From NCBI RefSeq assembly GCF_006345805.1, contig NW_021827949.1:1-9332 (forward strand): DNA of 9,332 nt, written 5' to 3'. Below are positions 3,591-7,432 of the stretch, piece after piece. This DNA is from Octopus sinensis. Lineage: Eukaryota. The position numbers and the translations under genes are program-made. Numbering within the stretch: position 1 is the stretch's first letter; each line of letters starts with the position of its first letter. The notes below the pieces were generated by a model, which ran no database searches, was not told the DNA's origin, and saw nothing but the letters and a program-made list of their open reading frames with translations.

Positions 3591-3633
3591 CCACCTGAAG
3601 ATTGTCGATCAAGACAAGAAACGATTGTAGTGG
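3591..3633 (+). ncRNA. Minimal type I hammerhead ribozyme with intact core
   Basis: Stem I CCAC (3591-3594)/GTGG (3630-3633); core CTGAAGA 3595-3601; stem II TTGTC/GACAA with a 6-nt loop; GAAA 3618-3621; stem III C-GATT-G; GUA cleavage triplet with the cut after 3629. Confidence 0.8.
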
Positions 3634-3809
3634 CGGTTTTTTTGACTATTTATTAAAATTTTATGTATTGATTAAGTCTTTCCTTGTTTGTTTTGCAAAA
3701 TAGTGGTTTTGTCTCGAATAATATTTTATAATATTTTACTATAAAATCGATTTAATCCTAAATCTGATTTTTTCCCTGTAAATTTGGATTTATTCCCTAT
3801 ATTTATTAT

Positions 3810-3811
<2 letters not shown>

Positions 3812-3870
<59 letters not shown>
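3812..3870. repeat. (TA)n microsatellite
   Basis: Directly visible. Confidence 0.95.
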
Positions 3871-3872
<2 letters not shown>

Positions 3873-4067
3873 CTTTACTTATATAAAAGGGCTTAGTAAA
3901 ATAAATTACTTTGCCGCATACTGAACTCATTAGAAATAGCAGCTAAATAAACATTTATAAAACTATTTCTAATACTTAAAGAAAACTCTCTCATATAGTG
4001 TTTGCTCAATTCAACTCACGGAAGTATGGGGGGTAGAGACATTAAAAAATCAGATGCAAAGGTTATT

Positions 4068-4121
4068 TGAGAACGTACGTTTCAAGATTAGTCAAAACTC
4101 GACATTTCTATCATCAGCTCA
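4068..4121 (-). ncRNA. Minimal type I hammerhead ribozyme (copy 1)
   Basis: Exact reverse complement of 4593-4646. Confidence 0.7.
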
Positions 4122-4592
4122 GACTCACTCCCTGGTTTGGATTTGAAACACTGAAAGTGGGAGCATACTCCTTCGGCCTCCTATCGCTTTTGAAGATCCG
4201 CTCGTAACTAACAGTGCCAACAAACCCCAATATGCAAGCGAAGAATTTCTGCTCTCCCCCCTTTTCCACCAGCGTGGGTTAAAATCAGCAAACACTATGC
4301 TTTTTTCGGTAAAATACGAGGCATTTAAATAGAGAGAGATGAATTATAATTTCAACAATTGAGGGTAAAATTAATTAATTAATCAATTTCACCAAGTGTT
4401 CAGTATGCAAAGGGACCATTTAAGGCGAATTCAAATTATTACATTATATAAAAGGGCTTAGTAAAATAAATTACTTTGCCGCATACTGAACTCATTAGAA
4501 ATAGCAGCTAAAAAAAACATTTATAAAACTATTTCTAATACTTAAAGAAAACCTCTCTCATATAGTGTTTTCAAATCCAAACCAGGGAGTTC

Positions 4593-4646
4593 TGAGCTGA
4601 TGATAGAAATGTCGAGTTTTGACTAATCTTGAAACGTACGTTCTCA
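4593..4646 (+). ncRNA. Minimal type I hammerhead ribozyme (copy 2)
   Basis: Stem I TGAG/CTCA; core CTGATGA 4597-4603; interrupted stem II (AGA/TCT and GTCGA/TTGAC); GAAA 4631-4634; palindromic stem III CGTACG; GUU triplet with the cut after 4642. Confidence 0.72.
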
Positions 4647-5148
4647 AATAACCTTTGCATCTGATTTTTTAATGTCTCTAGCCCCCATACTTCCGTGAGT
4701 TGAATTGAGCCAACCTATATGAGAGAGGTTTTTTAAGTATTAGAAATAGTTTTATAAATGTTTTTTTTAGCTGCTATTTCTAATGAGTTCAGTATGCGGC
4801 AAAGTAATTTATTTTACTAAGCCCTTTTATATAATGTAATAATTTGAATTCGCCTTAAATGGTCCCTTTGCATACTGAACACTTGGTGAAATTGATTAAT
4901 TAATTAATTTTACCCTCAATTGTTGAAATTATAATTCATCTCTCTCTATTTAAATGCCTCGGATTTTACCGAAAAAAGCATAGTGTTTGCTGATTTTAAC
5001 CCACGCTGGTGGAAAGGGGAGAGCAGAAATTCTTCGCTTGCATATTTGGTTTGTTGGCACTGTTAGTTACGAGCGGATCTTCAAAAGCGATAGGAGGCCG
5101 AAGGAGTATGCTCCCTTTCAGTGTTTTCAAATCCAAACCAGGGAGTTC

Positions 5149-5202
5149 TGAGCTGATGATAGAAATGTCGAGTTTTGACTAATCTTGAAACGTACGTTCT
5201 CA
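5149..5202 (+). ncRNA. Minimal type I hammerhead ribozyme (copy 3)
   Basis: Identical to 4593-4646. The predicted cut after 5198 lies 556 nt from the previous site. Confidence 0.72.
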
Positions 5203-5518
5203 AATAACCTTTGCATCTGATTTTTTAATGTCTCTACCCCCATACTTCCGTGAGTTGAATTGAGCAAACACTATATGAGAGAGGTTTTCTTTAAGTATTA
5301 GAAATAGTTTTATAAATGTTTTTTTTAGCTGCTATTTCTAATGAGTTCAGTATGCGGCAAAGTAATTTATTTTACTAAGCCCTTTTATATAATGTAATAA
5401 TTTGAATTCGCCTTAAATGATCCCTTTGCATACTGAACACTTGGTGAAATTGATTAATTAATTAATTTTACCCTCAATTGTTGAAATATATATATATATA
5501 TATATATACATTTTATTT

Positions 5519-6857: not shown

Positions 6858-7432
6858 GTGGCAAGCTAGTAGAAACGTTAGTGCCCCGCGCGAAATGCTT
6901 AGCCGTATTTCGCTCGTCGCTAAGTACTGAGTTCAATTTCCGCCGAGGTCAACTTTGCCTTTCATCATTTCGGGGTCGATAAATTAAGTACCAGTGACGC
7001 ACTGGGGTCGATTAATCGACGTAATCCGTTTGTCTGTCCTTGTTTGTCCCCTCTATGTTTATTCCCTTGTGGCTAATAAAGAAACAGATATTTCGCCCGT
7101 CGATACGTAATGAGTTCAATTTCCGCCGAGGTCAACTTTGCCTTTCATCATTTCGGGGTCGATAAATTAAGTACCAGTTGCGCACTGGGGTCGAAGTAAT
7201 CGACTTAATCCGTTTGTCTGTCCTTGTTTGTCCCCTCTATGTTAGCCCCGTGTTGGTAATAAAGAAACATATTTCACCCGTCGATACATTTTTAGTTCAA
7301 ATTCAGCCGAGGTCAACTTAGCCTTTCTTTATTGCGGGGTCGATAAATTAAGTACCAGTCAAACACTGAAGGTCGATATATTCGACTTGTCCCCCGCCCA
7401 AATTTCACGCCCTGTGCCTAGTGTAGAATTGT
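6858..7432 (+). mobile_element. tRNA-derived SINE with a Meta/MESC-type central domain, internally triplicated (~182-bp units)
   Basis: Head TGGCAAGCTAGTAGAAACGTTAG. Units start with TATTTC at 6906, 7089 and 7270. Each unit has a B-box-like AGTTCAA[A/T]TTC and the motif GAGGTCAACTTTGCCTTTCATCATTTCGGGGTCGATAAATTAAGTACCAG, which resembles the MetaSINE/MESC domain. Confidence 0.8.

Follow-up and report, generated by a model that had tools for sequence, protein, structure and literature searches.

The window analysed here, an entire contig of 9,332 bases from a 2.72-Gb octopus genome, contains one insertion of a dispersed, non-coding hammerhead element. We lean, if only by a modest degree, towards an element with predicted self-cleaving double hammerheads that likely yields circles of about 556 nt and is likely copied into (TA)n by a Penelope-like RT-endonuclease. 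At the level of sequence the unit meets the definition of a non-LTR retrozyme, and this retrozyme probably owes its integration to a Penelope-type enzyme that primes on both strands of the target. The unit is found at more than a thousand TA-microsatellite sites, as tandem, often mirror-image arrays. Since the class of element is already known, the interest is mechanistic, not categorical: what is new is the fixed-end (TA)n junctions and the pairing statistics of the two ends, A and B, and these mechanistic footprints are unusually clear.

The hammerhead unit and its genomic family

Self-alignment resolved the insertion into a minus-strand arm and a plus-strand arm placed head to head (Table 1), the repeated parts of which are 96-99% identical. 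The first-pass annotation, made from the letters of the sequence, had described tandem permuted units in both orientations (about 1.2 and 1.7) between (TA)n flanks; arms of these proportions were recovered, and the flanking tracts are plainly visible. Of the extent that it gave, 3879..5487, the right end stood, while the left end is to be moved to about 3872-3875. Three copies of the motif were found where none is expected (200 shuffles), and the two on the plus strand lie 556 nt apart, which bears out the proposed single hammerhead per monomer and the 556-nt monomer; the cleavage positions predicted at the time, 4642 and 5198, agree with the placement of the motif, the predicted GUU↓C cuts of the plus arm falling at 4642/4643 and 5198/5199. 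The unit has a GC content of 35% and a predicted fold better than that of 100 out of 100 shuffles (z = -4.5). It had rightly been called non-coding: the longest ATG frame on either strand of a unit trimer is 29 aa, with no RT or GIY-YIG frame in the unit. An autonomous PLE was rejected for want of an RT plus GIY-YIG frame, as was a plant LTR retrozyme (type III hammerhead in LTRs, 4-bp TSD), since the unit has a type I stem order and no LTR. No tRNA was found in the window.

Two further repeats lie in the window. A second large palindrome (285-1596) has arms of ~645 bp, 93-100% complementary, with a 25-nt spacer and microsatellites, and is either a fold-back or an artefact that a chimeric read produced in this small contig. 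At 6906-7359 a 183-bp unit is present in 2.5 tandem copies (89% matches) and resembles a common SINE-like repeat of the host.

Table 1. Features of the insertion, in window coordinates
Feature	Position	Strand	Details	Basis
(TA)n target tract, left flank	3798..3871	.		TRF + sequence
Inverted arm, about 1.25 units	3872..4570	-	Runs from 4570 to ~3872; unit positions ~66-556, then 1-~200; 5'-truncated at unit ~66; ends in end-A cluster (unit ~197-202)	Self-alignment
Hammerhead motif copy 3	4059..4133	-	Motif 4117-4073; core start 4117; predicted cleavage between 4072 and 4071	
Head-to-head junction	4564..4570	.	7-bp microhomology AGTGTTT common to both arms	
Direct arm, about 1.66 units	4564..5487	+	Unit positions 478-556, full unit 4643-5198, then 1-287; 5'-truncated at unit ~478; ends at end B (unit 287)	Self-alignment
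Type I hammerhead motif copy 1	4584..4655	+	Motif 4597-4641	Sequence + alignment pair counts
Copy 1, distal stem I	4584-4587/4652-4655	+		
Copy 1, stem I	4593-4596/4643-4646	+	TGAG/CTCA	
Copy 1, core and stem II	4597-4634	+	CTGATGA 4597-4603; stem II region 4604-4630; GAAA 4631-4634	
Copy 1, palindromic stem III	4634-4641	+	ACGTACGT; predicted cleavage after T4642	
Complete 556-nt monomer	4643..5198	+	Between two predicted cleavage sites; non-coding, structured	
Conserved 11-bp long-range stem	4787..4880	+	4787-4797 with 4870-4880; end A in its loop	
End A (unit coordinates)	4833..4845	+	Main junction after unit 193 = 4835, variants 191-208; putative RT start site 1	
Tail, ~97 nt	4836..4932	+	At one end only of two-armed insertions	
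End B (unit coordinates 287-291)	4929..4933	+	Putative RT start site 2	
Hammerhead motif copy 2	5140..5211	+	Motif 5153-5197; core start 5153; predicted cleavage 5198/5199	
(TA)n target tract, right flank	5488..5508	.		Sequence

The motif, described here with the usual hammerhead numbering and NUH rule, is of type I, with stem I TGAG/CTCA, a core CTGA(T/C)GA, GAAA, a short stem III and GUU↓C. It was first taken for a minimal hammerhead, a description that does not hold, as stem II is long (its region measures 27 nt in the window), contains an internal loop and has either U-U or A-A at the base (U-U in the window), and a distal stem I is present. An Infernal-type check suggested with that reading came back negative: no Rfam hammerhead family matched the window or the segment 4560-4700, the remaining Rfam matches being microsatellite hairpins below gathering scores. 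A metagenome scan for the motif gave 0 matches. Conservation of the core and covariation of the stems, proposed as a check on the genomic copies, were both found. Across 11 hand-picked variants from different subfamilies the catalytic core is invariant and 95.3% of cells pair, with both-side changes at 5 of 20 pairs; this paired share was reached in none of 500 shuffles, a test that ignores relatedness, and slid controls gave 32-45%. The hammerhead stems thus appear to be under covarying selection.

Stem III occurs as ACGTACGT, ACGTTAACGT and ACGGCCGT, all of them palindromes, in keeping with the short palindromic stem III noted at first. Among 361 raw reads of this stem from the retrieved loci, 325 show a perfect palindrome (mainly the first two forms, rarely the third) and 36 an imperfect one, counts that are biased and not to be read as frequencies, because the loci overlap and the first two forms served as search seeds. 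Calculated energies are -11.6 to -15.9 kcal/mol for the palindrome duplex and +1.7 for the intramolecular hairpin, and this pairing of a stable duplex with an unstable hairpin fits, in the model, double-hammerhead cleavage. The predicted minimum-energy fold of the unit places the motif inside another hairpin, and both the basal U-U or A-A of stem II and cleavage at GUU suggest weak activity. The axolotl HHR_Amex2, whose stem III spans 2 bp and whose stem II likewise has U-U at its base, is reported to cleave better as a dimer (PMC7229834), and eight of nine predicted Xenopus retrozyme dimers are given as uncleaved in vitro (10.64898/2026.07.22.740005).

A DNA search of the genome gave at least 204 matches on many contigs, from the 39 of 1,347 candidate regions that were scored, and the full-length matches among those scored are 92-98% identical to the unit. 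Exact matches to the motif number 2,738, and those to the motif of a second subfamily 121, with 0 in the control in either case. The 89 complete monomers (537-588 nt) fall into seven clusters up to 28% apart, and their comparison shows unit positions ~126-300 and the ribozyme to be the best conserved parts; more distant subfamilies with a similar unit length are present. The 11-bp long-range stem, which holds end A within its loop, shows a C-G to U-A change between subfamilies. On contig C1 the first 100 motif places correspond to 49 loci with 68 arms, bearing 1, 2, 3 and 4 motifs in 46, 13, 8 and 1 cases, respectively. Of 19 sequencing runs (8 studies, 5 organism labels) none is on record as RNA, and 14 were guessed to be so. 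Contigs of four of these guessed-RNA runs cover 28, 27, 26 and 7 of 30 unit bins, with many variants; as they carry no indication of strand, end or level, we do not count them as evidence. A distant subfamily unit has a much longer stem II loop and one locus has tail-to-tail arms (L239:1500-2300; L173), while nhmmer (E = 5.7e-07) relates the sequence at L113:71-212, which adjoins a Neptune-type copy, to the conserved end region, from which it is much further diverged.

Insertion ends and a proposed course of integration

Read in the ribozyme sense, the arms end in (TA)n at two fixed sites, A and B, ~193 and ~290 nt past the cleavage site. Exact (TA)n junctions were counted 999 times for A, with its main junction after position 193 and variants at 191-208, and 1,165 times for B (287-291), against 0 in the control; end A of the second subfamily added 207 exact junction matches, and the same two sites recur in subfamilies 20-28% diverged. 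The main junctions overlap (TA)n by a few bases only, and a TSD is unreadable within (TA)n. The pairing of ends was analysed on C1 up to 190.4 Mb, where 81 A and 100 B junctions were listed (two later C1 rows and the C2 rows were dropped). Among 35 neighbouring pairs no more than 6 kb apart, 33 were divergent A+B, one was divergent B+B, one was same-strand B+B and none was A+A, so that A+B accounts for 33 of the 34 divergent pairs (P = 1.4e-9); the remaining 111 junctions had no exact partner. This pairing fits a single event in which A is primed on one strand and B on the other and the far ends are joined.

The head-to-head anatomy with a tail of ~97 nt, at one end only of two-armed insertions, was seen at many loci. 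Two-strand loci make up 19 of the 49 on C1, with the 5' ends inside in all 19, and the inverted arm can itself be multimeric. At the inversion junctions (n = 36) the arms overlap by 1-23 bp in 23 cases, meet bluntly in 1 and are separated by 2-19 extra bases in 12. The 5' ends of the arms are spread over positions 23-532 and none of 89 lies at the cleavage site (n = 93 less four arms whose hammerhead continues upstream); with those four included, the distribution is non-uniform (KS P = 0.004). An inverted 5'-truncated copy, a one-sided tail and a (TA)n bias are marks of PLEs (PMC8557442), and their presence at the insertion ends upholds the Penelope-type copying suggested initially.

Many insertions are tiny palindromes that hold the end region only, without the ribozyme (L061:212-470 and 3630-3890; C1 pairs of 159-480 bp), and a TE annotator could mistake them for MITEs. 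At L080, L144, L183 (L166-L167) and L044, copies of different subfamilies adjoin in one (TA)n tract, which means that tracts are struck repeatedly. Three A/B pairs on C1 are 3.2-4.8 kb apart (21926391-21929684, 122755084-122759882 and 158072828-158076019), the first with no exact hammerhead match inside; an autonomous copy, cargo or a nested insertion are the candidate explanations.

We propose that integration would begin with read-through transcription of an array, after which two motifs would pair via the palindromic stem III and cut at GUU↓C, as structure and covariation predict, and a host ligase would close the monomer, by analogy with axolotl and mussel retrozymes. A PLE enzyme would then bind the conserved unit region ~126-300, cut both (TA)n strands and prime cDNA at A on one strand and at B on the other, as the end statistics suggest. 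Each cDNA would circuit the template for a variable length, passing the cleavage site, and the far ends of the two would be linked through microhomology or a few extra bases to give a head-to-head array with a tail at one end, in an order that we infer. In its full form, as the genomic record of rolling-circle double target-primed RT, with a dimeric Penelope-type enzyme on one circular RNA extending A and B cDNAs on opposite (TA)n strands and joining them head to head, this is a tentative proposal to which we give appreciably less than an even chance. If true, rolling-circle double priming would explain the inverted-copy-plus-tail structure of all PLEs, and a retrozyme would be able to recruit a PLE via a structured 175-nt module in which no homology to the partner is detectable. 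Self-priming on an antisense template has been put forward as an alternative (PMC3846280); alone, it does not predict two fixed unlike ends or independently multimeric arms.

Template, partner and competing explanations

The most serious rival retains the element and the two-strand integration by a PLE, and takes an uncleaved linear multimer as the template, circles being absent or a by-product and the ribozyme only trimming or regulating transcripts; we regard it as rather unlikely. Purified anole PLE used uncleaved RNA as its main substrate in vitro and inserted ribozyme mutants normally, the hammerhead being dispensable (PMC11167929), and, given this behaviour, an uncleaved linear RNA would account for the read-through of the cleavage site as well as a circle does, and likewise for the absence of arm starts at that site. 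Arrays are also short, with at most ~6 units per arm in the loci examined. Against this, multimers persist across subfamilies 28% apart, whereas a linear template would cap a daughter arm at its parent's sense arm, so that arrays would shrink in each round; whole arrays are fixed for unit-level changes, such as a 17-nt deletion characteristic of one subfamily's units; and the covariation of the stems points to selection on them. Within-array variants fall on both sides. Of 78 such variants, 57 were absent from every other array and 13 recurred in at least three, the sharing of some between arrays being compatible with a linear template; two arrays carried private alleles fixed throughout both arms, one array had seven monomers that differed at one scored site, some variants were common to subsets of units within one array, and only 30 of 60 monomers had their nearest neighbour uniquely in their own array. 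Assembly polishing may blur this pattern. Taken together, cleavage-site read-through, decaying arm lengths, private fixed alleles and the subfamily-wide deletion would speak for a circle, which we prefer to a linear template about twice as readily.

A second rival sees in the unit the detached pseudo-LTR of an unrecognised autonomous PLE, most copies being 5'-truncated stumps and the tandems arising by local DNA amplification. Xenopus retrozymes are described as homologous to pLTRs, with local amplification proposed (10.64898/2026.07.22.740005), many insertions here are shorter than one unit, and the three long A/B pairs, one without an exact motif match, could be read in the same sense. We nevertheless consider it improbable, as no PLE frame continues from the unit in the family loci screened for long frames, one adjacent Neptune-type copy proved to be a separate insertion with its own ends, and multimers in both arms with shared private alleles are not predicted by local amplification.

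The search for an autonomous partner bears on the same point. Of the two outcomes envisaged for a genome-wide search, dispersed permuted tandem copies were found, while linkage or homology to an RT/GIY-YIG element was not. An abundant family with intact 784-aa frames (150 of 13,331 candidates scored), presumably Neptune-type in view of a CxxC linker and C-terminal GIY-YIG, has the same insertion anatomy with a tail of ~35 nt; blast matched none of it to the unit, and its 12 long loci held no convincing hammerhead. Six of 147 listed GIY-YIG loci yielded the 3' ends of two more families and one internal piece, with no match to the unit. Alignments of the unit with the first, abundant family reached z up to 5 against whole-sequence shuffles, but were equalled in 5-8 of 300 local shuffles, and reversed controls scored equally high for other queries; this similarity was rejected. 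Among the three Neptune-type families whose 3' ends were compared, with tails of ~35 nt against ~97 nt in the unit, the best similarity to the unit (5 of 300 shuffles in 36 tests) was not significant, and neither was any homology to the pLTR of a resident PLE. The octopus Naiads in the literature have (TA)n as their target (PMC8557442); ~600 nt at each end of their consensuses, compared by eye, had nothing evidently in common with the unit, and none of three 10-nt motifs was found in that supplement, in which line breaks can hide motifs.

This first Neptune-type family is very abundant and young, with a 4.4-kb unit and TA flanks (L111:1605-5209, at G000:C3, 57.63 Mb; L075, L112-L119, L121). 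Besides the 784-aa RT-GIY-YIG frame it has a 437-aa frame that belongs to no Pfam family; the two overlap by ~64 nt and lie in different phases, whereas descriptions of EN+ PLEs give them a single frame. TTTTTTAG stands at the overlap in 21 of 21 junction reads, with no strong downstream hairpin, and may serve for -1 frameshifting or as a splice acceptor. In the flanks at L079, L116, L185, L074 and L076 there are pieces of additional PLE families, with other RT or GIY-YIG types.

The last rival, a DNA-level repeat (fold-back, MITE or satellite) or an assembly artefact with incidental ribozyme likeness, could appeal to a window that is a whole 9.3-kb contig with a further large palindrome at 285-1596, yet it was already disfavoured and is very improbable given the same anatomy at many sites on chromosome-scale contigs with differing junctions and unmirrored flanks, ends A and B that are unlike, contrary to terminal inverted repeats, and a catalytic core that is invariant while the stems covary.

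The origin of the inverted and tail structures of PLEs has been called undefined (PMC8557442). Mobilisation of retrozymes by PLE enzymes has so far been proposed from co-occurrence and pLTR homology, and the present family has the PLE scars on the retrozyme itself. Its thousand-plus young short-unit insertions, among which 33 of 34 pairs use a single start site on each strand, place a quantitative constraint on PLE integration, and the unit offers a small RNA substrate for an in vitro test.

Comparison with known systems

In L1 twin priming both target strands prime and microhomology joins the products into a 5' inversion, the second site being variable and lying upstream on a linear RNA. The present unit differs in that its two sites are fixed and ~97 nt apart, and in that its arms overlap in template sequence.

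With the metazoan non-LTR retrozymes as described in PMC7229834 and 10.64898/2026.07.22.740005, the unit shares a non-coding tandem organisation, one type I hammerhead, a GC content below 50%, thousands of copies and no LTR, and the motif of axolotl HHR_Amex2 (2-bp stem III, U-U at the base of stem II; PMC7229834) is close to its own. It had been thought unusually long, an impression corrected by the published range of 51-972 bp, with a mean of 650 bp in ray-finned fishes (10.64898/2026.07.22.740005); it exceeds in length the validated circles of coral, mussel and axolotl (170-400 nt). The descriptions drawn on from those two sources mention no fixed pair of 3' ends, no arrays joined head to head and no targeting of (TA)n, and the pLTR homology reported for retrozymes (10.64898/2026.07.22.740005) has no counterpart here among the three Neptune-type families compared. 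For cephalopods, 235 Rfam hammerheads are mentioned in the giant squid (PMC6962438); a search of open papers and preprint texts found no description of a cephalopod retrozyme, of this unit family or of PLE scars on a retrozyme, and a prior listing in subscription papers or bioRxiv supplements is possible.

The minimal hammerheads of PLE pLTRs (PMC4209133) likewise have a palindromic, unstable stem III predicted to act as a dimer, whereas the unit departs from them in its long, internally looped stem II, which has no G10.1-C11.1 pair, and in its conserved distal stem I. The EN+ PLEs (Neptune, Naiad and Penelope/Poseidon; PMC8557442, PMC3846280, PMC11167929) also form partial tandems with an inverted 5'-truncated copy at the 5' end and have a tail at one end, a (TA)n bias and a hammerhead upstream of two internal start sites; unlike them, the unit has no RT or GIY-YIG frame, a tail of ~97 nt instead of 30-40 and an inverted arm that can be multimeric. 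Purified anole PLE cuts and extends both strands, its RT starting at two internal sites that bound the tail (PMC11167929). The start sites reported there show no strand difference, whereas single events in the present family pair unlike sites.
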